From the NCBI GenBank assembly GCA_047946875.1, contig CP181398.1, forward strand, positions 271,154-335,153: a stretch of DNA of 64,000 nucleotides. Reading direction: 5' to 3'. Shown here piece by piece: positions 7,089 to 59,932 of this stretch. The position numbers and the translations under genes were made by a program. The notes under the pieces are model-generated. The model ran no database searches. It saw only the letters and a program-made list of their open reading frames with translations, and was not told the origin of the DNA. Positions within the stretch are counted from its first letter, which is position 1; the number at the start of each line of letters is the position of its first letter. Origin of the DNA: Candidatus Kerfeldbacteria bacterium (lineage in GTDB: Bacteria > Patescibacteriota > Patescibacteriia > UBA10025 > JAHIVO01).

Positions 7089-8447
7089 ATGACGGAGAAA
7101 TTTAAAACTCCTGATCCAACCATGCCCACTTCCGCAGACGTAGTTGTTATCGGAGGCGGTACTATTGGTGCTCTGGTTACTTTACAATTGCAGGAAGCGG
7201 GCTTGAAGACAGTCTGTGTGGAAGCGCACAGTACTAATTTTGGCAGTTCTAGTCGTTCAGCTGCCGCAGCTCGTCAACAGTTTGGTATGGAAGCCAATAT
7301 TACGATGCAACTCTATTCTGTGGATTTTTTCGCAAATTGGAAAAAAACTTTAGGTGGCACAACGCCACCAATGCATCAAGTTGGCTATCATTTCATGTTC
7401 GACAACAATTTTACAGACAATGGCAGTACTCGGGTTGACTCTAAGGCTGTCGTAGCTGCGAAACTCAAACGAGTTGAAAAGCAACGAGCTCTCGGACTCA
7501 ATGATGTAGAATTATTGATGCCGGATGAAGTAGCCGAACGTTTTCCCTACGTTGATACTTCTGAGTTGGCCTGCTCAACTTTTTGCCAGACAGATGGATA
7601 TTGTTATCCTAATGTCATCACCAATGATGGTTTCGATCGAGCCAAATCTTTAGGAGCAACTTTGCTTCAAAATACTTTGGTTTCAGGATTTAAAACTGAC
7701 AGTAATGGTAACATTACGGCAGTTGTAACCAACAAAGGTGAGATACCTTGTCAGTATGTAGTTAATGCTGCTGGTGTCTGGGCATCACGAGTTGGTGATA
7801 TGGTAGGTACAGAATTACCAATCAGTCCAGTACGACGCTATCTGTATTTTATGGGTCCTAATCTTGGTCAACTTGATTATGATTCATTTGCTAAGAAGAA
7901 TAATCTGCCTATGCCTATGTCAGATATGCCCTTCACGGTCACTCCTAATGGTGCTTACTGTCGTGCTGATGGTAAACAATTCATGCTCGGTTGGGACCGT
8001 CGTCCATCGGAAGATGTAATATATGATTTACCTAGTTTGGTAGATCATGACGCTTCTATTCAAGCACAGGATATCATTCAAGATGGTTTTAGAACCAATG
8101 ATGATCCGAGCTATGCTGAAGAGATGTGTATGGAAGTATCTGAACGACTTCCGTTCGTATTGGATCATTGTGGCTTTGCTTCTGCCACTTCCGGTTTCTA
8201 TGGAATTACGGCTGATCATAGTCCAATTATCAGTTTTGATTCTAATGCTAAGAATTTGATTCATTGCACCGGTTTTTCTGGTCATGGAATCATGCAAGGT
8301 CCAGCGGCTGGTAAGTTAGTGATAGATCTTATCACTGGTAATACTAGTCCTATTGTTGATCCTTTTGTTTATAGCTTAGGTGGTCTTTTGAGTCATCTTA
8401 ATGGTGATACAAAAAATGCTCGTCCGGCTGAGCACATGGTTATCTAA
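7089..8447 (+). CDS. FAD-dependent oxidoreductase, DAO family (sarcosine-oxidase-beta / proline-dehydrogenase-beta-like)
   Basis: VVVIGGGTIG dinucleotide motif. About 47% GC against a roughly 30% background. SD GGAGG upstream. Confidence 0.75.
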   Translation: MTEKFKTPDPTMPTSADVVVIGGGTIGALVTLQLQEAGLKTVCVEAHSTNFGSSSRSAAAARQQFGMEANITMQLYSVDFFANWKKTLGGTTPPMHQVGYHFMFDNNFTDNGSTRVDSKAVVAAKLKRVEKQRALGLNDVELLMPDEVAERFPYVDTSELACSTFCQTDGYCYPNVITNDGFDRAKSLGATLLQNTLVSGFKTDSNGNITAVVTNKGEIPCQYVVNAAGVWASRVGDMVGTELPISPVRRYLYFMGPNLGQLDYDSFAKKNNLPMPMSDMPFTVTPNGAYCRADGKQFMLGWDRRPSEDVIYDLPSLVDHDASIQAQDIIQDGFRTNDDPSYAEEMCMEVSERLPFVLDHCGFASATSGFYGITADHSPIISFDSNAKNLIHCTGFSGHGIMQGPAAGKLVIDLITGNTSPIVDPFVYSLGGLLSHLNGDTKNARPAEHMVI

Positions 8448-36003: not shown

Positions 36004-36951
36004 TTACCTTTTGATATTAAATAAATTTATTAATACTTGTTCAGCAATGTTATTTATTGGGTTTTCAGCAGATCTGCTTTGCATATATATTCCGGGATTA
36101 TCATTTACTTCAGTTATTGCGCCACCAGTTTTTTTATATGATTTGGTAATATCAGTAGTCATAAAATCAAATCCAGCAAAAACCATATCTAGCTCCTTCA
36201 TAGCTTTTAGACAAGCTTTAATGTAATCAGGGTGAACTGTTTTGATATCAAGATTATAGGTAGTGCCTCCTAGGTGTGCATTAGCTCTGTCTCGTAAGTA
36301 AATCTTTTCATCGTCTTTTGGTATTGAATTAATAGTGAGTTGTTGAGCTTTCAATTTATGAAGGACTTCTTGTCCAATAGTAATTGGGTGGGGTAATTTT
36401 CTATTTTTTAATTTAATTAATTCTTTGATTGTTTTTTTACCATCACCAGTTATTTTAGCTGGGAAGCGTTTAGTGACTGCTAGGACTTTATTTTTGCATA
36501 TTAATATCCTATGATCGTAACCAGAATAAAACTTCTCTATTAAAATAAATTTATAATATTTCTTTATCTTTTTAATAGCATTTTTAAGTTGAGATACATT
36601 TTGTATATCAGCAATAATACCCTCACCACCATAACCTTTTATTGGTTTAATGATAACTGGAAATCCTATTTTTTTTGCGAATTTGATGATATCTGAGTTT
36701 GGTTCGTTATAAAAACCTTTATGTGGGAAAACTGGAACATCTCTACTTTTTAAAAATAAATTAGTATGATTTTTTCGATCGGTCATTGCATGAGCTATAG
36801 AATCATTGACATCAGGAGTTGCTTGGTAAAATCTTATTGATTTACTTTTATAAAATATTTCATAGATATAAGAATTGGTAATAGTATACTTTAAGTCAAG
36901 TTTTTTGGCTGCTTTTGTATATATTTTTAGATAATCTCTTGTATAATCCAT
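36004..36951 (-). CDS. ATP-grasp ligase resembling the cyanophycin synthetase N-terminal (G) domain, paralog B
   Basis: RANAHLGGTT...VHP...GFD...TDIT...ITEVNDNPG matches the CphA ATP-grasp signature. No Mur-ligase domain. Confidence 0.55.
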   Translation of the reverse strand: MDYTRDYLKIYTKAAKKLDLKYTITNSYIYEIFYKSKSIRFYQATPDVNDSIAHAMTDRKNHTNLFLKSRDVPVFPHKGFYNEPNSDIIKFAKKIGFPVIIKPIKGYGGEGIIADIQNVSQLKNAIKKIKKYYKFILIEKFYSGYDHRILICKNKVLAVTKRFPAKITGDGKKTIKELIKLKNRKLPHPITIGQEVLHKLKAQQLTINSIPKDDEKIYLRDRANAHLGGTTYNLDIKTVHPDYIKACLKAMKELDMVFAGFDFMTTDITKSYKKTGGAITEVNDNPGIYMQSRSAENPINNIAEQVLINLFNIKR

Positions 36952-36953
36952 TA

Positions 36954-37892
36954 TTATATTTTTAAAAGATTAATAAGAACTTGTTCACCAATATCTTTAA
37001 TTGGATTGACTGTCGCTGTCATATGTATATCGGTAGCGGGATTATCGTTAATCTCGGTAACACCTGCACCTGTTTTTTTGTACGATTTTGTAATATCTGT
37101 GGTCATAAGATCTAATCCTGCTAATTTGAGATTAAGAAGTTTAACTGCTTTCATACTTATTTTAATATTATCTGGATGTACTGTTTTAATATTAACGTTT
37201 TCGGTTGTGCCACCAAGGGCTGCATTTGCTCTAAATCTTAAATATAAGGTTTTATTGAGTGGCAAAATAGATTTCAAAGTTAATTTTTTTGATTTCAGCA
37301 TATCTTTTACTTCTTGATCTATTTTTACCGGTTTTGGGAGATGTTTATTTTTTTTATTGATAAGTTTCAAGATTGAGTTGACACCATCACCTATGATGGA
37401 GGCTGGAAATCTTTTGGTGACTGCTAATAATTTATCGTTAACTATTAAAATACGATAATCCCAGCCAGGATAGTATTTCTCAATAATAATATTTTTATCA
37501 ATTTTTGTTGCAGTAATTATCGATTTTTTTAATTCCGATTGATTAATAATATTTACAGTTATGCCCATACCACAAAGACCAGCCACAGGCTTTACAACTA
37601 CTGGAAATTTTAGTGATTTTGTGTATTTTAATATTTCAGAAAATTTAGCGTTGTTAAATTTTTTTTGTTCAAAAACCGGGACGTTATTTTTTTTTAAGAA
37701 TTCATTTGTCATGTTTTTGTATTTTGTGATAATGTGTGCAACTGCGTTATTTTTGCTACACATTGCAAAATAAAATCTGACTTTATCTTTTTTATAAAAT
37801 ATATCAATCAAAAAAGCATTATGAAGTTTTATTTTTAATCCGAGTTTTCTAGCTGCCTGGGAATAGAATTTAGCGTAAAAGTAAGGTTTCAT
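36954..37892 (-). CDS. ATP-grasp ligase resembling the cyanophycin synthetase N-terminal (G) domain, paralog A
   Basis: RANAALGGTT...VHP...GLD...TDIT...VTEINDNPA. About 45% identical to paralog B by eye. Confidence 0.55.
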   Translation of the reverse strand: MKPYFYAKFYSQAARKLGLKIKLHNAFLIDIFYKKDKVRFYFAMCSKNNAVAHIITKYKNMTNEFLKKNNVPVFEQKKFNNAKFSEILKYTKSLKFPVVVKPVAGLCGMGITVNIINQSELKKSIITATKIDKNIIIEKYYPGWDYRILIVNDKLLAVTKRFPASIIGDGVNSILKLINKKNKHLPKPVKIDQEVKDMLKSKKLTLKSILPLNKTLYLRFRANAALGGTTENVNIKTVHPDNIKISMKAVKLLNLKLAGLDLMTTDITKSYKKTGAGVTEINDNPATDIHMTATVNPIKDIGEQVLINLLKI

Positions 37893-38737
37893 TATTTGTT
37901 TTGTTTATTGTATAGGTATTCAATCATTTGTGCCGCTATGTCAGTTCCTGTAATTTGTTGGGCTCGAGGAAAGAAGCAAGGATAATTTACTTCTGTGAGA
38001 TAATGTTTATTATTATGTATTAGGATATCTACTCCGCCAAATTCTAGATTTAATAATTGAACTGCTTTAATAGCGGTATCTTTAATATCTTTTGGAAATT
38101 TCTTAGTAATAACTTTGGGATTTCCTACATTTGATCTAAAGTCATCTTTTGGTGCTTGATATTCTATACTATCTATCACTTTATCTCCTAAGACCACAAG
38201 TCTGGCAGAAGAAGTAACAGGAATATATTCTCTGATCATTACTTTAGCCTCATCATTTCTAAGATAGTCTAGAACAGAGAATAGAGATTCTATTGAATCA
38301 ACTTTCATAACTCCGACTCCATGGCTTTTACCAGATACTTTAACTATATAAGGAGGACCATTAAGGTCTTGAATTTGGGATTCAATATTTTTTTTGTCCT
38401 TTGTAATGATAAATATAGTTTTTGGGGTAGGTACTCCATTCTCTATATAAATTTTTTCATCAGCTGCAGCATTCATACCACCATGGAGAGCTTTACGATA
38501 ATCCGTATAAAATGTAGCTACTTTTTCATTGAGTAATTCTATTTCTATTTGTCTGGCATAGGGGGTAGTATTAGCTCGATAAAGCGCATCTTTTGTGGTT
38601 GGTTTTTTAAAATTTTTTTCAGGGTAAGTTCTAATATCTACATAAATTAGATCCACCTCGTTATTTTTTTTACAGGCATTTACAAAAGTATCATTGATTT
38701 GTGAATTGGATTCACTGGATATTAAATAAAATTTCAT
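37892..38737 (-). CDS. RimK-family ATP-grasp (alpha-L-glutamate ligase-like)
   Basis: DFRSN, GVDIL and TGTDIAAQMI motifs as in RimK. Confidence 0.6.
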   Translation of the reverse strand: MKFYLISSESNSQINDTFVNACKKNNEVDLIYVDIRTYPEKNFKKPTTKDALYRANTTPYARQIEIELLNEKVATFYTDYRKALHGGMNAAADEKIYIENGVPTPKTIFIITKDKKNIESQIQDLNGPPYIVKVSGKSHGVGVMKVDSIESLFSVLDYLRNDEAKVMIREYIPVTSSARLVVLGDKVIDSIEYQAPKDDFRSNVGNPKVITKKFPKDIKDTAIKAVQLLNLEFGGVDILIHNNKHYLTEVNYPCFFPRAQQITGTDIAAQMIEYLYNKQNK

Positions 38738-45410: not shown

Positions 45411-45896
45411 ATACCTAAGTGAACTGGATGATTACCCTTTTGCATTATTTTGTACAGGGGAGGAAAGTCCGAACACCTCTTCGTGTAATAGCGAAGGATA
45501 AAGATAGTCGTTAACGGCGACCGAGTAGGATAATTTTTAAGAGAGCAATTGCCTTTTAAAGGTTATAATGCCTAGGGAAAGTGTCACAGAGACAATACCG
45601 CCTACCTTCGTTCACCTGTGGTGAACTACGGCAGGCAGGCCTAAAAGTAGGCTTGCCCAACGAAGCTCGCTAAAGGCGAGCGTAGGTGGGTAAGGGTGAA
45701 AAGAGTGGTGTAAGAGACCACAAGTAGGTTAGGTGACTAACCAGCGTGAAAAACCCTATCTGGTGCAAGATCAAGTAGGTCTATCGTAAGATAGGCGGGT
45801 TGATTGCTGGAGCTTAATAGTAATATTAAGCCAAGATAGATGATCATCGTCCCGCTTGCGGGATACAGAATTCGGCTTATAGGTTTGCTTAGGTAT
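45411..45896 (+). ncRNA. rnpB: RNase P RNA (bacterial type A, long)
   Basis: GGAGGAAAGTCCGAAC (P4), AGGGAAAGTGTCACAG and ACAGAATTCGGCTTATAG conserved blocks. P1 pairing ATACCTAAG/CTTAGGTAT. About 486 nt. Confidence 0.8.
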
Positions 45897-51382: not shown

Positions 51383-53752
51383 TTGAAAAAAAATATGGAT
51401 TTTGCTGATAAAAAAGCGCACTTAAAATTTAATAAAAGATCAAAAAATGGACATAGACAAAGCGGTCCTAATTTTGGTATACCACATGCTAATATAATTG
51501 ATTTGAAGAAGATTCATAATGAAAAGAAAGAAAAGGAAAAACAGATAATTAAAGATAATGAAAATATTATAACTAAAATTAGTAATATTAAATGGCCCAA
51601 GTTAAGTATCCCAAAAAAGATTCATCACAAAACAGCCTTGGAAAAAATACTGGTATCAAAAATTAATCAAGATGCACCAACTGAGATAAGTATAAATAAA
51701 AAAAAGGAGAATCAGAAAACAGCAAAACAAATTCCAACTAAACCAGATATTAATCAAATTAAATTAGACGTTAAACAGTTCTCACTATCCTCTGGTTGGT
51801 ATAAGCGTTTAGCTGTGTTTTCTTTAGTTTCACTAGCAATAATTGCACCAATATACTTAATGAATTTTTACGAAAATGCTAAGCAGACGCAAGGTCAAGT
51901 CTTGGGAATATCTTCAGAAGCATATGATTTTTTGAAAGAAGCGGGGTCTTTTGCTACATCTTCAGAATTCAGTGAGGCAGGAGAATCATTTGGTAAAGCT
52001 GCTGAAAGTTTTATAGAGGCGCAAGATCAATTAGAATCAGCTGGAGGAGTGGTATTGTCAATCGCAAATATAGTACCTAATAAGGCTAAAAGTGCAGAAT
52101 ATCTTTTATCAGCTGGGGCGCATATGAGTAAGGCAGGAGTTCTTGTTTCTGAGATTATACCTGAATTAGAAAATTTTGATGTTAATCCATTAGATAATAA
52201 GCAAGTTACGACACTAACTGATTTTTTATTTTTTATTAAAACAGAGTTACAACCAGTACAGACTGAGTTAGAATTAGCTATTAGTGATATTGATAATGTA
52301 AGAACTAAAGATTTGCCTGATGAGTATCAAGAAAGTATGGCACTAGTAAAAAATTCTTTACCAGCTTTGGAAAATGGTTTTGATAGGATATTTTCAGTTG
52401 CAGATGTATTACTAGTTATATTGGGGCATGAAGCTCCACAAAGATATTTACTTACTTTCCAAAATAATAGAGAATTACGACCGACTGGTGGGTTTATAGG
52501 ATCTATTGCTCTGATGGATATTTATAAAGGCAATATAGAAAATTTGGAAGTTCCTGGTGGCGGTGTTTATGATATTGCTGGACAATTAAATGAAAAAATT
52601 ATATCACCTAAACCTCTTTGGCTAGTAAATCCACATTGGAATATTCAAGATAGTAACTGGTTTGCTGATTTTCCAACTTCAGCAGAAAAAATAATTTGGT
52701 TTTATGAAAGAGCTGGCCGTACAACTGTAGATGGTGTGATGAGTATGACCCCTGAGGTGATATTAGATCTATTGAAGATTACAGGGCCTATCGTAATGGA
52801 TGATTATGGATTAACTATCGATCATAGTAATTTTATTAGAGAAACACAGTACCAAGCAGAGATTGCTTATGATAAAGAAGAAAATCAACCAAAAAAGATA
52901 ATTGGCGATATGTTACCAAAATTGTTTGATAAAATATTTTTAGTAGAATCTACTGACTTTTTGAAGATAGTTGATGTGTTCAATAAATCATTAGGAAACA
53001 AAGATATTTTATTTTATTTTACAGATGAAAACTTGGAGAATAAAATTAATGAACTTTCATGGGGAGGTAAGATTATAGATACAAATAAAGATTATTTGAT
53101 GGTAGTTAGTTCTAATATTGCTGGAGGTAAAACTGATCACGTTGTTGATCAACTAGTTTCTCACGAAGTAAATATCCAATCAGATGGATCAATGATTAAT
53201 ACAGTAAAAATTTCAAGGACACATCAAGGTAACAGTTTAGATATATGGGAAGGGGAAGACAATGTATCATACTTACGAATTTATGTACCTAAGGGAAGTG
53301 AGTTAGTGTCTATAGAGGGTTATGATAATATACCAAGTTTTAGATATTTATTACCAGATCAAGATGCAACAACAGATGATTTCTTATCCAACATTGAACG
53401 AAATTCAATTATTGACGAATCGACAGGCACAAGAATAACTACAGAATTTAATAAGACGGTTTTTGGTAATTGGATAAGTATTTCTCCTGGAGAAACACAG
53501 GAGTTAATAATCTCATACAAATTACCATTTAATCTGGATTTTGGTGGATTATTTGATAAAACAGATTCCTATAGATTGTATGTACAAAAACAACCAGGTT
53601 TAATAAATAATTTCTTTACTACCAAGGTTAATTGGTCTGATGATATTAGCTTGATTTGGAATCAGGCTGGGTTTACGATTGATGAACATTCAGCTGAATA
53701 TGTAACAGATCTTGATAGTGATAAAATATTAGGGGTGATAATTAAGAAGTAA
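51383..53752 (+). CDS. Large membrane-anchored protein (possibly DUF4012-like)
   Basis: 789-aa ORF with a basic N-terminus and one TM helix near residue 140. The domain guess is from memory only. Confidence 0.35.
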   Translation: MKKNMDFADKKAHLKFNKRSKNGHRQSGPNFGIPHANIIDLKKIHNEKKEKEKQIIKDNENIITKISNIKWPKLSIPKKIHHKTALEKILVSKINQDAPTEISINKKKENQKTAKQIPTKPDINQIKLDVKQFSLSSGWYKRLAVFSLVSLAIIAPIYLMNFYENAKQTQGQVLGISSEAYDFLKEAGSFATSSEFSEAGESFGKAAESFIEAQDQLESAGGVVLSIANIVPNKAKSAEYLLSAGAHMSKAGVLVSEIIPELENFDVNPLDNKQVTTLTDFLFFIKTELQPVQTELELAISDIDNVRTKDLPDEYQESMALVKNSLPALENGFDRIFSVADVLLVILGHEAPQRYLLTFQNNRELRPTGGFIGSIALMDIYKGNIENLEVPGGGVYDIAGQLNEKIISPKPLWLVNPHWNIQDSNWFADFPTSAEKIIWFYERAGRTTVDGVMSMTPEVILDLLKITGPIVMDDYGLTIDHSNFIRETQYQAEIAYDKEENQPKKIIGDMLPKLFDKIFLVESTDFLKIVDVFNKSLGNKDILFYFTDENLENKINELSWGGKIIDTNKDYLMVVSSNIAGGKTDHVVDQLVSHEVNIQSDGSMINTVKISRTHQGNSLDIWEGEDNVSYLRIYVPKGSELVSIEGYDNIPSFRYLLPDQDATTDDFLSNIERNSIIDESTGTRITTEFNKTVFGNWISISPGETQELIISYKLPFNLDFGGLFDKTDSYRLYVQKQPGLINNFFTTKVNWSDDISLIWNQAGFTIDEHSAEYVTDLDSDKILGVIIKK

Positions 53753-53843
53753 AATGTAGTATATTTATTGGGGTTAATTTAATATGAGTAATAATTTTTT
53801 AGCTAATTTTAGCTAATTTTTTTATTATTGTGGATATTACCCC

Positions 53844-53872
53844 TTGACAGGGAATAGTAGTAGGTATATGAT
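53844..53872 (+). promoter_or_regulatory. Near-consensus sigma70 promoter
   Basis: TTGACA-17 nt-TATGAT. Confidence 0.45.
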
Positions 53873-54028
53873 TATAAGTTATATTGTTTTTTACAACTAA
53901 ATATGTAAATAACTCTTTGAGGAGAGAGTTATCAATTAAGCATTATAATAGTGCTTATGATATAAACTATTTGAATTGAATTCTATTTATTAACAATAGA
54001 ACCAATAACTAAATTAATGTAATCAAAT

Positions 54029-54067
54029 GGCGAACTCTCCTAAAAGAAAGTTCGCTTCTTGTTTTTT
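54029..54067 (+). terminator. Rho-independent terminator
   Basis: GGCGAACT...AGTTCGC followed by TTCTTGTTTTTT. Confidence 0.55.
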
Positions 54068-54218
54068 AGGGAATGAAAAGGGGGGCTAGAAAAATGATAT
54101 CAATATGGATTAGTTTTTCTCTCGGTGTAAACTGAGAATTCACTAATCTTGGTATCTGGTGTATGCGTCAAACTTACGTGCGACTAAGCTATACCACTAG
54201 CAACCTTCTCATTCTTTG
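54068..54218 (+). repeat. Repeat family A, copy 1 (variant closing helix)
   Basis: Near-identical to copies 2-4 across about 140 nt. Ends TAGGGAATGA / TCATTCTTTG. Confidence 0.8.
54094..54135 (+). CDS. Leader uORF MISIWISFSLGVN (copy 1)
   Basis: AAAAGGGGGG SD 8 nt upstream of ATG. Conserved across 4 repeat copies. Confidence 0.35.
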   Translation: MISIWISFSLGVN

Positions 54219-54229
54219 AAAAAAAATTT

Positions 54230-54327
54230 CGAGTGGGTATAAGGTCACCTATTAGCATTCTCACGGATGAGGTGTTACCGTCTTAAATAATATAGGCGTT
54301 GGGGTGTGCAGATCCCCCTTCCACTCG
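54230..54327 (+). other. Structured 98-nt element (7-bp closing helix CGAGTGG/CCACTCG with internal hairpins)
   Basis: Long-range perfect complementarity plus GGGGtgtgcagatCCCC and CACCT...AGGTG hairpins. Lies between repeat A1 and cargo gene 1. Confidence 0.3.
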
Positions 54328-54372
54328 ACAAAATTATTCGTTAAAAAACGAGTATTGCTATTAGCAATTTGT

Positions 54373-54407
54373 GGGCGAGGTTACGGAAGCTTCGCCACCT
54401 TTTTCCA
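54373..54407 (+). terminator. Hairpin followed by T-run
   Basis: GGGCGAGG...CTTCGCC then CCTTTTTCC. Confidence 0.4.
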
Positions 54408-54479
54408 GCGGGCATCTGCTATTGTGGATGTTTGCTGAAAAAAGGGATAAAAAAGTACAAAAGGCAAAAGGAGAGCAGT

Positions 54480-54725
54480 ATGTCTGGCATATTTCTTAAA
54501 AACGTATTTGATCGCATAACAGCTTTAATGAGTAAGGCGATCGTATACAACTTCTCAGCAGATCAAAATCAACGTGATATAAGCGATCGTATAGGTACTC
54601 TAAACGATCAAATCATCAAATATGATAGTGATCTCAGCTGGGGGAATATTGAGAAGTCTGAATCTACTGAAGCAGATTTTCTTAAAGAGTTCGAAGAAAT
54701 TGAAGCAATTATTGTTACTTTCTAA
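54480..54725 (+). CDS. Cargo gene 1: small acidic protein (81 aa; start moved to ATG 54480)
   Basis: AAGGAGAG SD 6 nt upstream. The track ORF starts further upstream at 54369 with no RBS. Confidence 0.45.
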   Translation: MSGIFLKNVFDRITALMSKAIVYNFSADQNQRDISDRIGTLNDQIIKYDSDLSWGNIEKSESTEADFLKEFEEIEAIIVTF

Positions 54726-54808
54726 ATTCTTTTCCTGGGGAATGGATTTAATTCATTCCCCACACATTTCTAGAGAATCAAGTAATTGGTTAACTGGAAA
54801 TATGCTAA

Positions 54809-54999
54809 AGTTCTTTACATCAATATTTCACAGTTAGAAAAGGGGGGCTAGAAAAATGATATCAATATGGATTAGTTTTTCTCTCGGTGCAAACTGAGAA
54901 TTCACTAATCTTGGTATCTGGTGTATGCGTCAAACTTACGTGCGACTAAGCTATACCACCCGCCCAAGGCGGATAAACTAGCAATCTTCTCTAACTGTG
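54809..54999 (+). repeat. Repeat family A, copy 2 (19-nt hairpin insertion)
   Basis: CACAGTTAGA...TCTAACTGTG closing inverted repeat. Insertion CCGCCCAAGGCGG at 54959-54977. Confidence 0.8.
54856..54897 (+). CDS. Leader uORF MISIWISFSLGAN (copy 2)
   Basis: Same SD and spacing as copy 1. Confidence 0.35.
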   Translation: MISIWISFSLGAN

Positions 55000-55030
55000 A
55001 AAATATTGCTATAAGTTTTAAAAATGGAGG

Positions 55031-55273
55031 ATGAAGATGAATTCCATATGGGAAGTAGTAAAAGGCTTCATTAGTTCAATAATAGTACCTTACATTGGTA
55101 TTTGGACAATTGAAGGGACTCTGGAAGGTACAATATGTATTTATAAGTTACCGATTTATATGGTAACTGGAACTGGAGTTTGTATACTAATTCTCTTCAT
55201 TTGTTTCATAATTCATGTTGTTATTGAAGAGATTTGTGAGAAAATTAACAATAAACTTCATCAGTCCATATAG
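55031..55273 (+). CDS. Cargo gene 2: small two-TM membrane protein (start possibly 55037)
   Basis: GGAGG SD. ATG at 55037 has better spacing. Confidence 0.45.
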   Translation: MKMNSIWEVVKGFISSIIVPYIGIWTIEGTLEGTICIYKLPIYMVTGTGVCILILFICFIIHVVIEEICEKINNKLHQSI

Positions 55274-55294
55274 CAGATGTTAAATGTTCTTTAC

Positions 55295-55328
55295 GGAGAA
55301 AGCCTAAAAAACTTTCTCCACTTTTTCC
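55295..55328 (+). terminator. Rho-independent terminator
   Basis: GGAGAAAG-cctaaaaaa-CTTTCTCC followed by ACTTTTTCC. Confidence 0.5.
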
Positions 55329-55375
55329 AAGAAATAATGCAAATTGTTTGCTGAAAAAAGGGAATGTTCTTTATA

Positions 55376-55536
55376 TCAATATTTCATGGTTAGAAAAGGG
55401 GGGCTAGAAAAATGATATCAATATGGATTAGTTTTTCTCTCGGTGCAAACTGAGAATTCACTAATCTTGGTATCTGGTGTATGCGTCAAACTTACGTGCG
55501 ACTAAGCTATACCACTAGCAACCTTCTCTAACTGTG
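55376..55536 (+). repeat. Repeat family A, copy 3
   Basis: CATGGTTAGA...TCTAACTGTG. One extra C at 55441 frameshifts the uORF tail. Confidence 0.8.
55411..55464 (+). CDS. Leader uORF MISIWISFSLRCKLRIH (copy 3, frameshifted C-terminus)
   Basis: Same SD and start. A 1-nt insertion changes the last residues. Confidence 0.3.
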
Positions 55537-55574
55537 AAAAAACAATAAACATCATATAAACCTGGAGTAATGAA

Positions 55575-55955
55575 ATGATTACTGATCACGTAGAGTGGGC
55601 TCGTAAGCTGACGGAAGAGATGACTCGTGAACTCGAGGAATTACTTGCCCGTCACGGCTATCGGTTTATCGAAAGGGAAGATCTTGTTCCAGGCAGAAGG
55701 TTTCAAATGGTTGAAATATGGCCATTTGTACCGATAGAAAACCCTCGGTTCGTAGGCACTCAGGTAATGATCGATGATCCTGGTATTCGTACTTGTGATC
55801 ACCCTGATCTTCCGGATGAGTATGTATATTATCATTCGGTGGGATGGAAGAGACAGTGCTTCGTTCCGTTGGAAATGTTTCTTAATCGGCAAGCCGGACC
55901 GCATGACAATAGACAATACGCCTACGTTGTCCCAAATTTCGGAGGTTGTATGTGA
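55575..55955 (+). CDS. Cargo gene 3: hypothetical protein, about 47% GC (foreign composition)
   Basis: Compositional outlier. Its last 14 nt are part of repeat B. Confidence 0.5.
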   Translation: MITDHVEWARKLTEEMTRELEELLARHGYRFIEREDLVPGRRFQMVEIWPFVPIENPRFVGTQVMIDDPGIRTCDHPDLPDEYVYYHSVGWKRQCFVPLEMFLNRQAGPHDNRQYAYVVPNFGGCM

Positions 55956-56092
55956 CATTTATTCCAAAGTCCCAGAACCAAAACTGGTAGGATAGTTACC
56001 TGAAACAGAATAACTCGGGAAGAGATCTTTTCTTCCCGTACTTTTCCAGAATATCATGAGAGTGGTGTTTTGAAAAAGTGATTGAACATTAC
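55942..56092 (+). repeat. Repeat family B, copy 1
   Basis: About 150 nt, roughly 90% identical to copy 2. Contains perfect hairpin CGGGAAGA-gatctt-TCTTCCCG (56016-56038). Confidence 0.75.
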
Positions 56093-56112
56093 ATATAAAG
56101 AAGGGAATAATA

Positions 56113-56259
56113 ATGAATATTACTATAATATCATTAGCGCTTCTGGCAATAGTCTGTGGATGTAGATTGTATTTTTCTAAAAACGGAAAAATTCAGTTTT
56201 TAGCAGCAATCGAAGGGATAGCAATAATTATCGTAATAGTTACCACACAGATTAATTAG
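56113..56259 (+). CDS. Cargo gene 4: 48-aa small membrane protein
   Basis: AAGGGAAT SD-like sequence upstream. Two hydrophobic segments. Not in the ORF track because it is under 60 aa. Confidence 0.4.
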   Translation: MNITIISLALLAIVCGCRLYFSKNGKIQFLAAIEGIAIIIVIVTTQIN

Positions 56260-56334
56260 TCAGAGTATTATTGTTCCATAGGAAGGAAGTACAAAAATGG
56301 ATAAGATTCAAATTGAATTGGAAATTATCTAAAT

Positions 56335-56368
56335 GGGCGAGGTATTGAGAATTTCGCCCCTTTTTTTC
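56335..56368 (+). terminator. Rho-independent terminator
   Basis: GGGCGAGG...TTTCGCCCC followed by TTTTTTT. Confidence 0.55.
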
Positions 56369-56410
56369 AGCGGGCATTTGCTATTGTGAATGTTTGCTGA
56401 AAAAAAGGAA

Positions 56411-56582
56411 AGTTCTTTACATCAATATTTCACAGTTAGAAAAGGGGGGCTAGAAAAATGATATCAATATGGATTAGTTTTTCTCTCGGTGCAAACTGAG
56501 AATTCACTAATCTTGGTATCTGGTGTATGCGTCAAACTTACGTGCGACTAAGCTATACCACTAGCAACCTTCTCTAACTGTG
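56411..56582 (+). repeat. Repeat family A, copy 4
   Basis: CACAGTTAGA...TCTAACTGTG. Confidence 0.8.
56458..56499 (+). CDS. Leader uORF MISIWISFSLGAN (copy 4)
   Basis: Same SD and spacing. Confidence 0.35.
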   Translation: MISIWISFSLGAN

Positions 56583-56608
56583 AAATAAAATATAGAATAA
56601 GGAGAATT

Positions 56609-57127
56609 GTGATGAAACTTACACATTTCATTAACTGCAAATTCGATTGGTATTACCGCCTGACATTATGTCTCTTGGTATATTTCTTTACCAATTCATA
56701 TTACGTAAGTGGTCAAATCACTTATTGGAACAGTATTGGTGCGTTTATAACTGGATCGTTACTTATCAATATCATTTATGTGTTGATAACAATGATTGCA
56801 GTATATCCTTTGCACTTATTGTATTTGTTCGTTGCATCTAAGATTGCAGTCAAGAAAAAAAGACCAAAAAAAGATGAATATTGTGTCAGTTGTAGGTATT
56901 TATCGGTAACAACATTCATCGTTGTATTAACTTATGCAACTTATAAGTTTACGATTGGTGAAGCTGTTTTATGGGAAGCTGTTGTTGGGGGATTGTTGGG
57001 TGCTATCGTTGTGAATTTGATGATCCGGTTTATAGGTTGTCTAACTTTTTGGCCACTACATTCATTTTTCAATTTTGTATGGTACAAATTGTTCAAAAGA
57101 AATGTCGTACAAGCATCCACATGTTAG
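56609..57127 (+). CDS. Cargo gene 5: four-TM membrane protein
   Basis: AAGGAGAA SD. GTG/ATG start. Confidence 0.5.
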   Translation: MMKLTHFINCKFDWYYRLTLCLLVYFFTNSYYVSGQITYWNSIGAFITGSLLINIIYVLITMIAVYPLHLLYLFVASKIAVKKKRPKKDEYCVSCRYLSVTTFIVVLTYATYKFTIGEAVLWEAVVGGLLGAIVVNLMIRFIGCLTFWPLHSFFNFVWYKLFKRNVVQASTC

Positions 57128-57189
57128 TATTTTTTCACAAGTGAGATTAGACCTAGTGTCTTGATCTTGAAAAGTTCCTCTTTATTCTA

Positions 57190-57340
57190 GAGGTTATATG
57201 TGACATTTGTCCCAAGGTTCCAGAACCTATAACTGGTAGGGTAGTTACCTGAAACAGAATAACTCGGGAAGAGATCTTTTCTTCCCGTACTTTTCCAGAA
57301 TATCATGAGAGTGGTATTTTGAAAAAGTGATTGAACATTA
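57190..57340 (+). repeat. Repeat family B, copy 2
   Basis: Near-identical to copy 1, including the CGGGAAGA...TCTTCCCG hairpin. Confidence 0.75.
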
Positions 57341-57365
57341 TAACTAAATATAGATCGGAGAAAAT

Positions 57366-57521
57366 ATGTACGAATATGTAGGTATTGCAATTGGTATCAT
57401 GTTACTTGCTTATGTTGCCTATAAATATTTGGTTGCATCTGTAGTATCATGGTTTGTCTGTATGGCAATCGATAAACTGTTTGAAACCCATAATATAAGT
57501 ATGGGAAGAATAGGAAGGTAA
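57366..57521 (+). CDS. Cargo gene 6: 51-aa small membrane protein
   Basis: GGAG SD upstream. Hydrophobic core. Stop overlaps the next gene's start region. Confidence 0.4.
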   Translation: MYEYVGIAIGIMLLAYVAYKYLVASVVSWFVCMAIDKLFETHNISMGRIGR

Positions 57522-57522
57522 A

Positions 57523-57762
57523 ATGTACTATCGTCATGATGAAAGAATGATGAAAATGAATATGGCTTTAGTCTTAGTCCTAGTGCCAATTCTATTCGTA
57601 GTCACTTTCGGAATTTCTGCATTAGGATGGGGTAGCCTCGACTCTTTTATGAGAGGTTTTATGGGTTATACCACTCTTATATTTGGAGGTGTATGGTTGG
57701 CTGTCCTTGAAGGAGAAACAAAAGATTTCCGATCCAGGGTCAAGGCAATGATATGGTCATAA
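57523..57762 (+). CDS. Cargo gene 7: 79-aa two-TM membrane protein
   Basis: GGAAGG SD. Translationally coupled to gene 6. Confidence 0.45.
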   Translation: MYYRHDERMMKMNMALVLVLVPILFVVTFGISALGWGSLDSFMRGFMGYTTLIFGGVWLAVLEGETKDFRSRVKAMIWS

Positions 57763-58303
57763 ATTGACCAAGACTATAATTATATTGGGGCAGCTCTGTA
57801 TTAATACAATACATCTGCCCATTCTTTTCCAGAACATCTAGTTCCTTCTCCCATCCAGGCTCAGGATATTGTCCAAAGGACTCAGGTGTTATGAAAAAGG
57901 GGGGTGAATATTTAAACTAAAATATATATAATTAGTTTATCCTCACAATTTTTAAAATGCATGTTTGACAATTTATTATATTAAGCGTATTTTTTAACTG
58001 CTAATCAATTATTAGTTGATTGGCACAAGAAAGCTGTCGGTTATGAAATGCTGGAGATCTAACTTATTAAGTAGAAAAATCTCTCTCCTCATGTTCTAAT
58101 TTAATTATTAGAATATTTCTACTCAAAAGTTGGTATAATCCTTCAACTCATGTCGACAGCTTTTTTGATACATAGGATTTGATTCTTAGCTACATTCAGG
58201 ACACTATTATTAGTATTAGTATTTTGCGACACCTTATTGTATTTTTATCATTTTAATCATCGGTGTTGATTTATATGCTATTTTTTGTTATAATTTTTTT
58301 ATT

Positions 58304-59932
58304 ATGATGTTTAGAATTTGGCGCAAACTTACCACCACCTTAGCCGGTGGTGCGATTATTATAGCCACAGCTTCTGTTACCAGTCGTCTACTTGGTTTGA
58401 TCAGAGATAGGTTATTAGCAAATAAATTTGGTGCTGGTGATACCTTAGATATTTATTATGCTGCATTTAGAATACCTGATTTAGTATTTAACGTTTTAGT
58501 TTTGGGTGCATTATCGGCGGCTTTTATTCCAATATTTGTTGAATATTTACAAAAAGCTAAAGAAGATCCAAGTAAAAAGAACGAAGTTTGGCATCTAGCT
58601 AATTCACTATTAAATATATTATTAGCTGGTTTATTGGTTTTTGGTTTTCTTCTATTTATCTTTGCACCGCAGATTGTTCCATTGATTGCGCCTGGTTTTG
58701 ATCTGGATAAACAAGCTATTGTAGTGAACATGACCAGGATTATGTTAATATCAATTATATTTTTTGGTATTAGTAATGTTATTACAGGCATGTTGAATTC
58801 TATGAAAAAATATGCCAACTTTGCTTTAGCGCCAGTAATGTATAATATTGGAATTATAATTGGAATTATTTATTTAACGCCGATTTATGGTATTTACGGT
58901 TTAGCTTATGGTGTAGTACTTGGTTCATTTTTACATTTAGTTATTCAAATACCTGGAGCGCTAAAAATTGGATATAGGTATCAACCGATTTTTGATTATA
59001 CGCACAAAGGAGTTAGAGCTATTGGTAAATTAATGTTACCAAGGACTTTTGGACTTGCTGTTACGCAAATAGATCAATTGGTTAGTGTGATAATTGGTTC
59101 AACTTTAGCTACTGGTTCGGTGGCTGTTTTTACTTTAGCCAATAATCTTCAGAATTTTCCAATTGGCGTTTTTGGAGTATCGATGGCTGTAGCATCATTC
59201 CCATTTTTTAGTGAAGCGTTTGCTCAAAAAAATGTAGAATTATTTGTTTTACATTTTTCAAAAAGTTTTCGTAGGATACTATTTCTAGTCATTCCTATTT
59301 CAGTTTTAATATTTTTACTTAGAGCTCAGTTGGTGCGTGTTATTCTTGGTTCAGGAAATTTTGATTGGCAAGATACATATTATACAGCCCAAACTCTTGG
59401 GTTTTTTGCATTGTCATTATTTGCTCAGAGTACTATCCCGCTTTTAGCTAGATCATTCTACGCTTGGCAGGATACTAAAACCCCGGTAAAAATTGCCATT
59501 GTTACTGTGATTGTAAATATTTTCGGAGCATTAGTTTTAAGTAATTATTTAGGAGTAATTGGGTTGGCAATTGCATTCTCAATTTCTAGCGTTGTTCAAA
59601 TGATATTATTATATATATTTTTAAGAAAAAAAATGGGTAATCTTGATGATAAAACTTTGGTTATTTCGTTGAGTAAAATAGTATTAATAACTGCAATGAT
59701 GGGGGCCGTTGTTCATGCTTCAAAATATGTTCTAGCACTTGGAGTAAATATGGACACTTTTTTAGGAATATTTATTCAAGGTGTAGGAGCAGGTATTATT
59801 GGTATCGTTTTTTATCTAATACTAGCCTTTATGTTTAGATGTGACGAAATAACAATTATTACTAAACTGTTCATTAAAGCAAAAAATCAACTATTTAATG
59901 GTAAGAATAAAGAAAATATAAATGCAGAATAA
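58304..59932 (+). CDS. murJ: Lipid II flippase MurJ
   Basis: Full-length MurJ/MviN similarity, about 14 TM helices. Confidence 0.85.
   Translation: MMFRIWRKLTTTLAGGAIIIATASVTSRLLGLIRDRLLANKFGAGDTLDIYYAAFRIPDLVFNVLVLGALSAAFIPIFVEYLQKAKEDPSKKNEVWHLANSLLNILLAGLLVFGFLLFIFAPQIVPLIAPGFDLDKQAIVVNMTRIMLISIIFFGISNVITGMLNSMKKYANFALAPVMYNIGIIIGIIYLTPIYGIYGLAYGVVLGSFLHLVIQIPGALKIGYRYQPIFDYTHKGVRAIGKLMLPRTFGLAVTQIDQLVSVIIGSTLATGSVAVFTLANNLQNFPIGVFGVSMAVASFPFFSEAFAQKNVELFVLHFSKSFRRILFLVIPISVLIFLLRAQLVRVILGSGNFDWQDTYYTAQTLGFFALSLFAQSTIPLLARSFYAWQDTKTPVKIAIVTVIVNIFGALVLSNYLGVIGLAIAFSISSVVQMILLYIFLRKKMGNLDDKTLVISLSKIVLITAMMGAVVHASKYVLALGVNMDTFLGIFIQGVGAGIIGIVFYLILAFMFRCDEITIITKLFIKAKNQLFNGKNKENINAE

Follow-up and report, generated by a model that had tools for sequence, protein, structure and literature searches.

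The 64-kb window analysed here, a stretch of the genome of a tiny-celled, uncultured Candidatus Kerfeldbacteria bacterium (contig CP181398.1), carries a 4.5-kb island that occupies the gap between a gene for a DUF4012 protein and murJ, which is followed in turn by the gene for LepA, as assigned by Pfam annotation of the flanks. The island contains seven small open reading frames (ORFs) of 81, 78, 126, 48, 171, 51 and 79 amino acids, all with a Shine-Dalgarno sequence, together with four copies of a repeat termed A, two copies of a second repeat termed B, and a recurrent pair of hairpins, T and X. The numbers of repeat copies, obtained with a repeat finder and from alignments, and of ORFs are those of an earlier sequence-only reading of the window, as is the membrane-type character of five of the seven ORFs, which is seen as hydrophobic segments. 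All of the ORFs and modules of the island lie on one strand (+). The same reading had taken the repeats for reusable regulatory or recombinational modules; their reuse is borne out below, and of the two roles the evidence favours the regulatory one, exercised at the level of RNA.

Two NCBI assemblies of one Candidatus Kerfeldbacteria metagenome-assembled genome carry an identical island, and 12 related loci, numbered with the prefix L, were fetched by way of their MurJ homologues, which are 63–82% identical to that of the window. Every relative contig of sufficient reach has the gene order GT4, DUF4012, island, MurJ and LepA, the island measuring 2.0–6.3 kb, and the repeat modules are kept in at least 12 related loci of the Candidate Phyla Radiation (CPR), always in the slot between DUF4012 and murJ. 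The ten islands that were mapped conform to a single scheme. The left part is made up of a promoter, a non-coding leader, the first A copy and a series of ORFs with T-X, the first A copy often having a T-X but no ORF and being in effect a non-coding cassette. The right part usually contains a second, divergent A copy, a last hairpin module and a promoter-bearing small RNA gene, beyond which lies murJ. Some of the ORFs in the arrays have an A or B leader upstream.

The cargo itself is replaced from one island to the next. The islands of the window, L008, L009 and L010 have no cargo protein in common, and only two weak homologous pairs were found across nine islands. The locus had been described as a cassette-like island, and in its relatives the slot is indeed syntenic whilst the contents turn over: the repeat families are kept and the cargo is lost, which is the opposite of cargo genes being conserved without the repeats. 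Integrase, transposase, reverse transcriptase and cas genes, reported as lacking in the island, were looked for both there and among its neighbours, and none was found. The neighbours within 8–10 kb in nine loci encode GT4, DUF4012, MurJ, LepA, bPH_2, a PDZ protease and a peptidase S8, with no tyrosine recombinase or IntI within that distance, and the 20 mid-sized ORFs of the window that were checked are all housekeeping genes with no tyrosine recombinase amongst them. The island is rather more probably than otherwise a lineage-specific, hypervariable array of accessory genes belonging to a Kerfeldbacteria-like clade of the CPR.

Repeat A has a 45-nt core that occurs exactly four times in the window (at 54151, 54913, 55469 and 56515), with zero occurrences expected by chance, and the repeat finder placed the copies at 54027–54224, 54789–54986, 55345–55542 and 56391–56588. 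The copies share 87–96% identity over 173 aligned positions, and A2 and A4 are 100% identical across 153 nt. With scores from a covariance model, R1, the four copies and the segment behind the first are as follows.

54058 to 54230, + strand: A1 (R1, 180 bits), with a closing stem of its own, GAAUGA/UCAUUC, that is compensatory; no ORF comes after it, making it a 'non-coding cassette'
54231 to 54371, + strand: segment of about 140 nt behind A1, with a closing stem UCGAGUGG...CCACUCGA read from the sequence
54820 to 55011, + strand: A2 (R1, 164 bits), with an extra 19-nt hairpin at 54958–54976; the next start codon is 26 nt downstream
55376 to 55548, + strand: A3 (R1, 178 bits, and alignment)
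56422 to 56594, + strand: A4 (R1, 180 bits; fold z = -6.7); the 171-aa ORF begins 18 nt downstream

Segments of similar size to that behind A1, non-homologous and with closing stems of their own, also come after the first A copy in L008 and L009.

A folds into a three-way junction of about 170 nt with a 15-bp closing stem (z = -6.7). Diverged copies in the relatives were detected by BLASTN, and in a first alignment of 10 copies, produced with MAFFT independently of the model, 28 of the 44 pairs show compensatory changes. R1 recovers 20 copies from 11 loci, all on the + strand and all within DUF4012–murJ islands, and no further significant match (E ≤ 0.01) was obtained in the approximately 380 kb searched, which comprised the rest of the window, the flanks of the relatives and the distant relatives L011–L018. 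The weaker entries were reverse-strand shadows of true copies and a single match outside an island with an E-value of 0.35 (L008, 12905–13010). For 18 of the R1 matches 89.6% of the cells are paired, against about 44% with the partner columns slid, 33 of the 44 pairs change on both sides and 0 of 500 shuffles reach the observed score; this 18-copy alignment was fitted to R1 and is hence biased toward the structure, and the MAFFT alignment agrees with it in direction.

The model scores 180 bits on the + strand compared with 17 on the - strand. Some of the G-U pairs are invariant and the P3 loop alternates between GNRA and UNCG tetraloops, which shows that A acts as RNA on the coding strand. In the closing stem of A3 a CA-to-UG change leaves the pairing kept solely by G-U wobbles on the + strand. 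The best conserved part of A is an inner helix, in which a Shine-Dalgarno-like AAGGAGG (GAAAAGGAGGG) is paired with CCUUCUC; the downstream Shine-Dalgarno sequence lies outside the A fold. The element ends 10–59 nt upstream of a start codon with a Shine-Dalgarno sequence in 12 of the 20 copies, and where an X hairpin comes before it the two are 4–18 nt apart. A search of Rfam 15 at E ≤ 10 over 53600–58400 gave nothing that overlaps A, and exact-pattern scans for A of viral collections and GTDB species genomes gave no match. A is, on the strength of its alignments and predicted fold, a structured domain of the 5' untranslated region (UTR) that is absent from Rfam. It resembles the cis-regulatory 5' UTR RNAs of the Rfam type in being a covarying multi-stem junction upstream of start codons, but differs from them in having no Rfam 15 match or evident platform, in preceding unrelated genes, in being multi-copy in one locus, and in that one of the copies in each genome stands alone.

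Two candidate observations on A were set aside. A scan of a metagenome collection for the A pattern gave four matches, all of them chance 20-mers without flanking similarity; the collection missed the metagenome contig L001 (JGI 3300083231, 1589 bp), and the sample from which L001 comes is therefore not part of it. A 13-codon upstream ORF, MISIWISFSLGAN, that had been noted earlier, is present only in the A copies of the window, the relatives having either no start codon or unrelated frames of 2–6 codons; it is not conserved, and a role as a leader peptide in attenuation was accordingly rejected.

The second conserved module comes behind the ORFs. After each ORF of the window stands a variable hairpin rich in GC, T, with a second hairpin, X, adjoining it; X measures about 50 nt, and its base, YYUYUCCAGCG ... 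UGCUGAARARR, is conserved whereas its interior varies. The invariant part of the base is CCAGCG...UGCUGAA, which is flanked by a pyrimidine and a purine tract and includes no AAC/GTT pair. Across 14 copies of X from seven loci 96.4% of the cells are paired and 12 of the 20 pairs change on both sides. The G-U pair at columns 18–42 is invariant and about 16% of the X cells are G-U, so that the opposite strand would pair in about 82% of the cells and give a clearly worse fold. A covariance model for this module, R2, has 29 + strand matches in 12 loci, all inside islands and typically one at the 3' side of each ORF, and finds no match in the distant relatives. The window has six or seven T-X modules, of which those outside the B repeats are listed here.

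54372 to 54447, + strand: T-X behind the A1 segment (T 54374–54396, X 54396–54447), from the terminator scan; R2, 66.8 bits
54736 to 54805, + strand: degenerate T-X after the 81-aa ORF, two adjacent hairpins (z = -4.8)
55295 to 55363, + strand: T-X from the fold; R2, 27.7 bits at 55318–55363
56334 to 56409, + strand: T-X, 83% identical to 54372–54447, from the terminator scan; R2, 64.6 bits
57786 to 57905, + strand: T with a long, partly degenerate X variant, from the fold; no R1 match

The last of these had been put down as a degenerate remnant of A, an identification that the lack of an R1 match overturns; the stretch is 78% identical to L008 8870–8947, is homologous to L008 8867–8951 and aligns to L148 1806–1878. 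The units had also been described as separated by Rho-independent terminators. Terminator-like hairpins are enriched in the island (10 compared with 2.4 expected), and T together with the 5' strand of X resembles an intrinsic terminator in this AT-rich genome, but what had been noticed is the first half of the conserved T-X double hairpin. The tract that follows T is always the 5' strand of X, and in the GC-richer relatives L024 and L023 it reads CCCUCCUUC or ACUUUCUCC, a poor U-tract for a terminator. The degeneration of the U-tract in these relatives means that the view of T-X as a single RNA module is preferable to that of a simple terminator. Two further leads on X proved to be spurious: a loose X pattern is found in at least 120 stretches of viral contigs, where the 80 loci listed have no R2 match and represent chance matches, and two miRNA models of Rfam lie beneath X at 56345–56419 with 21 bits, well under their gathering thresholds of 63 and 80, and were likewise taken as chance.

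Repeat B combines a structured part of about 70 nt with a T-X and AUUGAACAUU. Its two copies are 94–96% identical, and it is conserved in the closest relative, L148 (1336–1563).

55942 to 56099, + strand: B1, trailer and leader (T 56016–56038, X 56037–56082), overlapping the last four codons of the 126-aa ORF
57190 to 57348, + strand: B2 (T 57265–57287, X about 57286–57331)

The genes between these modules are small, and in the window none of their products has a match in Pfam, PHROGs or PADLOC.

54480 to 54725, + strand: 81-aa ORF, soluble, no family match
55037 to 55273, + strand: 78-aa ORF, about two transmembrane segments
55575 to 55955, + strand: 126-aa ORF with a GC content of 0.42–0.44, against about 0.31 in its surroundings
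56113 to 56259, + strand: 48-aa ORF, two transmembrane segments, 50% identical to a 47-aa ORF of L148 that stands behind a B-like element
56297 to 56332, + strand: 11-codon mini-ORF, MDKIQIELEII, behind the 48-aa membrane ORF and preceded by a strong Shine-Dalgarno sequence
56612 to 57127, + strand: 171-aa ORF, three to four transmembrane segments
57366 to 57762, + strand: 51-aa (57366–57521) and 79-aa (57523–57762) ORFs, both hydrophobic

The ORFs behind the repeated leaders are mutually unrelated. The 126-aa gene is the one that had been called compositionally foreign, and its GC content bears this out; the protein is an orphan for which only itself was found among 5.8 billion protein clusters, and its AlphaFold2 model is uninformative, with a pLDDT (predicted local distance difference test) score of 40. 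The mini-ORF is conserved in L148 (1744–1779), where the alignment gives MDKFLIGLGII. In the relatives many of the cargo proteins are lipoprotein-like, signal-peptide-like or small membrane proteins, the lipoproteins being 144–369 aa in length. One ORF of L149 has a weak Pentapeptide_3 annotation. A stand-alone 97-aa ORF with an FHA domain (Pfam E = 9e-18) is carried as cargo in L009 at 7575–7868 and is the sole significant Pfam match among the island ORFs scanned.

The closest relative, L148, whose MurJ is 82% identical to that of the window, illustrates how the frame outlasts the genes within it. Its A leader is followed by a 326-aa ORF that has no family match, a GC content of 0.45–0.52 and no relationship to the 126-aa ORF of the window; behind this come a B-like trailer, the 47-aa homologue, the 11-codon mini-ORF, T and a long X. 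The two sister lineages share the A/B frame and hold in it different, compositionally foreign genes. The A copy of L148 has a closing stem, an upstream TTACAT and an extra hairpin that are exactly those of A2, together with a divergent interior. The extra hairpin of A2 is CCGCC-CAA-GGCGG, inserted between the P4 and closing helices, and the same insertion in L148 (approximately 232–252) indicates that it is an old variant rather than a recent one.

The near-identity of the repeats, given as more than 95% and measured within the window at 87–96% for A and 94–96% for B, is specific to it, since paired A copies within one relative genome are only 37–53% identical. The copies of the window also form a mosaic, in which the interior of A1 is identical to that of A2 and A4 and its closing stem is different. 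Such a pattern points to gene conversion and not to the recent insertion of a mobile unit. The near-identity of A would be best explained, from these sequence comparisons, by gene conversion of the interior in the lineage of the window, along with duplications that set the leader before several ORFs.

Taken together, the repeats are considered, with a probability of about 0.55, to be punctuation for the expression and processing, at the RNA level, of a hypervariable cassette array whose cargo turns over by recombination at the same modules. The array would be transcribed from the left-hand promoter and through T hairpins that are weak. The helix of X, some 20 bp in length, may be a processing site of the RNase III type, with T shielding the new 3' end after cleavage at X, and with A, 4–18 nt beyond it, protecting or controlling the 5' end so created as well as translation of the ORF that follows. 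The T-X double hairpin would thus serve as intercistronic punctuation, and newly acquired ORFs that have no promoter would thereby obtain a ready-made expression context. Cargo would be turned over by recombination at the conserved modules, the repeats supplying the homology for loss or gain of a cassette, and the near-identical copies seen in this genome would stem from gene conversion and from duplication, both affecting the A interior and B.

There are precedents for the separate parts of such a scheme. The early genes of phage T7 have RNase III sites between cistrons, and operons contain stabilising hairpins of the REP (repetitive extragenic palindromic) type. Like these, X is a conserved helix of about 20 bp between cistrons, lies beside a stable hairpin that could block 3' exonucleases and, together with T, is placed within what would appear to be a co-transcribed unit. 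In contrast to these, T-X is specific to one island and one clade instead of being genome-wide, and it is coupled to cargo turnover. In the vsp, vsa, vlp and vpma loci of Mycoplasma the genes lie on both strands and share coding N-termini, and variation depends on DNA inversions and on a site-specific recombinase dedicated to the locus. The island has in common with them a reduced genome, a variable cluster of surface or membrane genes, near-identical 5' regions and reshuffling through recombination between repeats; it differs from them in that a single strand carries all the genes, sharing is confined to the UTRs and there is no recombinase in the vicinity. Capsule and O-antigen loci are replacement hotspots swapped through flanking homology, and here too a fixed slot beside envelope-polysaccharide genes has its content replaced and includes some cargo of foreign GC content, although the island holds small orphans rather than biosynthetic operons and has a conserved RNA grammar within it.

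Several points weigh against this RNA-level scheme. The T hairpins of the window look like competent intrinsic terminators, in which case read-through or internal promoters would be needed, and internal promoters were not found. No ORF lies directly downstream of eight of the A copies, and in A conserved unpaired nucleotides are few and an expression platform is not obvious, neither a terminator nor sequestration of a Shine-Dalgarno sequence being seen. Co-transcription, cleavage at X and an influence of A on the stability or translation of transcripts are inferences, and the search for further copies in this genome covered 64 kb of its 1.31 Mb. Finally, both of the indels detected in the island map to T-X modules, the one that can be resolved lying at the base of X, and a DNA-level role for X predicts the same.

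Taken singly, these components belong to known kinds: hairpins between cistrons, a structured 5' UTR and a hotspot of replacement beside envelope genes. What appears to be new is how they are combined, in a cassette array of a CPR clade that has a fixed place in the chromosome and its own conserved RNA grammar, and that reuses leaders in front of unrelated foreign genes. The literature on integrons and attC sites in Patescibacteria, on structured RNAs in the CPR and on Kerfeldbacteria yielded no description of the locus. At least two RNA families missing from Rfam, the A three-way junction and T-X, would be added for the CPR, a group whose RNA biology is scarcely known, and two conserved small RNAs flank the array in addition. 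The island also provides a natural example of the reuse of expression modules around orphans of foreign GC content, which bears on gene acquisition in reduced genomes and on the origin of cassette arrays. With cargo that consists mostly of small membrane proteins and lipoproteins beside envelope genes, the island may well contribute to the surface variation of an episymbiont towards its hosts or phages.

The alternative that fares best, though it is still unlikely, is an integron-like array in which X is a site akin to attC, each cassette is an ORF with its T-X, cassettes enter and leave by site-specific X-by-X recombination downstream of the fixed promoter, and the recombinase is encoded elsewhere or is of an unknown type. 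The architecture matches that of integrons and of CALINs, the attC site clusters that have no integrase (PMC4889954). The ORFs are small, mostly orphan, in one orientation and without evident promoters, an imperfect palindrome, conserved at its base but varying inside, closes each of them, and one promoter stands at one end. The island has at least two such same-strand palindromic sites, each closing a promoter-less cassette, its cargo varies between related genomes and, as in a CALIN, no integrase is nearby (PMC4889954). A difference in folding between the strands is itself an attC property. X nevertheless has neither the R'' (RYYYAAC) nor the R' (GTTRRRY) box of attC, pairs best as + strand RNA with many G-U pairs, one of them invariant, and is in every case joined to another hairpin, T, and in many to the 170-nt A element, which is clearly RNA. 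An attC site works as folded single-stranded DNA of the bottom strand, with extrahelical bases; the pairing of X, better on the coding strand and rich in G-U, favours RNA, a DNA fold of the top strand being less probable. The absence of a tyrosine recombinase in the neighbourhoods of the nine loci and among the mid-sized ORFs of the window also tells against it, and the island occupies one fixed, vertically inherited slot between core genes.

The indels are a further argument on the side of a recombination site. Relative to L148 the window has an extra segment of about 1.46 kb (56381–57838), both breakpoints of which fall right after the conserved ...UUYCAG of an X hairpin. L001 is 98–99.7% identical to window positions 54871–57708 and jumps from B1 to B2, so that it is without the 48-aa ORF, A4 and the 171-aa ORF, exactly the cassettes between the X of B1 and that of B2; here the crossover is localised only to an identical stretch of 70 nt that contains CCAG. 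In L010 and L022, moreover, a two-gene lipoprotein cassette stands on opposite sides of a unit made up of A and a membrane gene. Breakpoints at the sole conserved sequences would also be expected from homologous or microhomology recombination, and L001, a metagenome contig of 1.6 kb, is either an assembly collapse or a natural deletion variant that recombination between the two B copies produced. A broader form of the idea, a gene-capture system of the CPR that works independently of an integrase or is served in trans, with X doubling as recombination site and RNA processing signal and with A and B as portable leaders, is similarly doubtful. Were X also to be a DNA recombination site, the system would be integron-like but of independent origin, an analogue evolved separately in ultra-small symbionts that diversifies their envelope or surface proteins.

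Another way of reading A starts from the right end of the islands. In six loci the second, divergent A copy is directly followed by a gene of one membrane protein family of 134–163 aa, which has the motifs WW, LP and YYxRDxGxR and is here named after the last. Its members are located as follows.

L008, 9158 to 9610: YYxRDxGxR family membrane protein
L022, 7136 to 7609: YYxRDxGxR family membrane protein
L023, 7040 to 7498: YYxRDxGxR family membrane protein
L024, 7141 to 7545: YYxRDxGxR family membrane protein
L025, 7069 to 7560: YYxRDxGxR family membrane protein
L147, 358 to 825: YYxRDxGxR family membrane protein

Homologue searches indicate that this family, like the 126-aa protein, is restricted to the clade. 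A might be a riboswitch with a sensing role, a leader that binds a protein or a small RNA acting in trans, in each case partnered with the YYxRDxGxR protein, its extra copies being a neutral by-product of duplication. The constant association of the second A copy, the strong conservation of the structure and the way in which the first copy stands alone, like a small RNA unit ending in T-X, would all suit this. It is quite improbable all the same, as no platform of the terminator or Shine-Dalgarno-sequestering kind and few conserved unpaired nucleotides are seen in A, the leader precedes unrelated ORFs in both the window and L148, and the window has no clear member of the family.

The RNA-level scheme places transcription under a promoter at the left of the array, for which a candidate is present. 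The two ends of the island have the following features.

53844 to 53872, + strand: P1, a sigma-70-like promoter (TTGACA-17-TATGAT; 11/12 matches in the promoter scan) at the left end of the island
53880 to 54067, + strand: sRNA-1, a non-coding leader or small RNA, from a four-species alignment and consensus fold
57965 to 58166, + strand: promoter P2 (57965–57993) and sRNA-2, from alignment and fold with 10 covarying pairs

P1 is conserved in L008, L009, L010, L024 and L025. The sRNA-1 region has a hairpin at 53912–53929 (ACUCUUUGAGGAGAGAGU), a AACCAAUAACU motif and a terminator-like hairpin at 54030–54055 followed by a U-run; inspection revealed no conserved ORF. The ends of sRNA-2, which has no Rfam match, are closed by a stem, AAAGCUGUCGG/CGACAGCUUUUUU, and the molecule has a CU-rich single strand and a conserved hairpin. 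It exposes AUCUCUCUCCUCA (58079–58091), which is complementary to GAGGAGAGAG of the left leader. In 10 loci the AUCUCUCUCCUCA motif lies upstream of murJ, among them the distant L013 (at about 7495; MurJ 49% identical), where neither A nor X was detected, and its link to murJ may reach further than its link to the island.

The complementarity extends to sequences held in common by the relatives. The loop of the left-leader hairpin contains UGAGGAGAGAG, the exact complement of which, CUCUCUCCUCA, is exposed in the right-hand small RNA, and most of the relatives compared (L008, L009, L010, L023, L024 and L025) have both without change. L025 departs on each side (CUGGAGAGAGA and UCUCUCUCCCUU), but nine complementary bases are retained. 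From sequence alone, sRNA-2 (UCUCUCUCCUC) and the leader hairpin (GAGGAGAGAG) may be a regulatory pair that interacts in trans, or the match may be a coincidence resembling that between a Shine-Dalgarno sequence and its anti-Shine-Dalgarno partner.

A further alternative is that the array consists of modules resembling type I toxin–antitoxin systems, in which small hydrophobic peptides behind structured 5' UTRs are repressed by antisense or trans-acting small RNAs, sRNA-2 being a possible example. Five of the seven ORFs are short and hydrophobic, the leaders are structured and repeated, the units stand in tandem, a CU-rich conserved small RNA adjoins them, and one antisense promoter-like site (56149–56122) falls within the 48-aa ORF. 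Tandem type I loci such as ldr/rdl and ibs/sib of Escherichia coli repeat the toxin ORF itself. In the window repetition is limited to the UTRs and the ORFs are dissimilar, the cargo at large also includes soluble proteins, lipoproteins of 144–369 aa and the FHA-domain protein, and promoter-like matches in the island are not above chance (20 compared with 23.9 expected), those on the antisense strand included, all of which makes this explanation very improbable. Weakest of all is the proposal that A and B are selfish, recently inserted repeats with terminal inverted repeats, akin to miniature inverted-repeat transposable elements: despite a perfect 15-bp inverted repeat at the ends of A2–A4, copies taken to be more than 95% identical and the good folding of both A strands, it is close to refuted by orthologous copies that occupy equivalent positions in 11 loci and show covariation of the RNA type as well as G-U pairs, by the lack of any target-site duplication of flanking bases, of copies elsewhere in the window or in the flanks of the relatives, and of matches in the exact-pattern scans of viral, genome and metagenome collections, and by the mosaic that points to gene conversion.

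Within the island, the start of an ORF that has no A leader lies 30–50 nt beyond X, an interval in which nothing resembling a promoter is seen. Internal promoters in or just after X were considered, with TTGCTG, TTTACA and TTGAAC as candidate -35 elements, and were rejected, since no -10 box is suitably spaced from any of them and the start codons follow too closely. A near-perfect sigma-70 promoter (TTGACT-17-TATAAT) does lie inside the island of L010, at approximately 7425–7460, upstream of the two-gene lipoprotein cassette. At least some cassettes, that of L010 being the case in point, bring a predicted promoter of their own.

ARAGORN found no tRNA-like gene in the island, and over the window as a whole an RNase P RNA and one tRNA alone exceed the gathering thresholds of Rfam 15. 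The RNase P RNA (class A, 208 bits) is located at 45416–45895 and spans 480 nt in comparison with the 367 positions of the model, which implies sizeable insertions. Further upstream, three consecutive genes for ATP-grasp proteins resembling RimK or D-Ala-D-Ala ligase extend from 36004 to 38737 on the - strand and represent the sole minus-strand block of the window.

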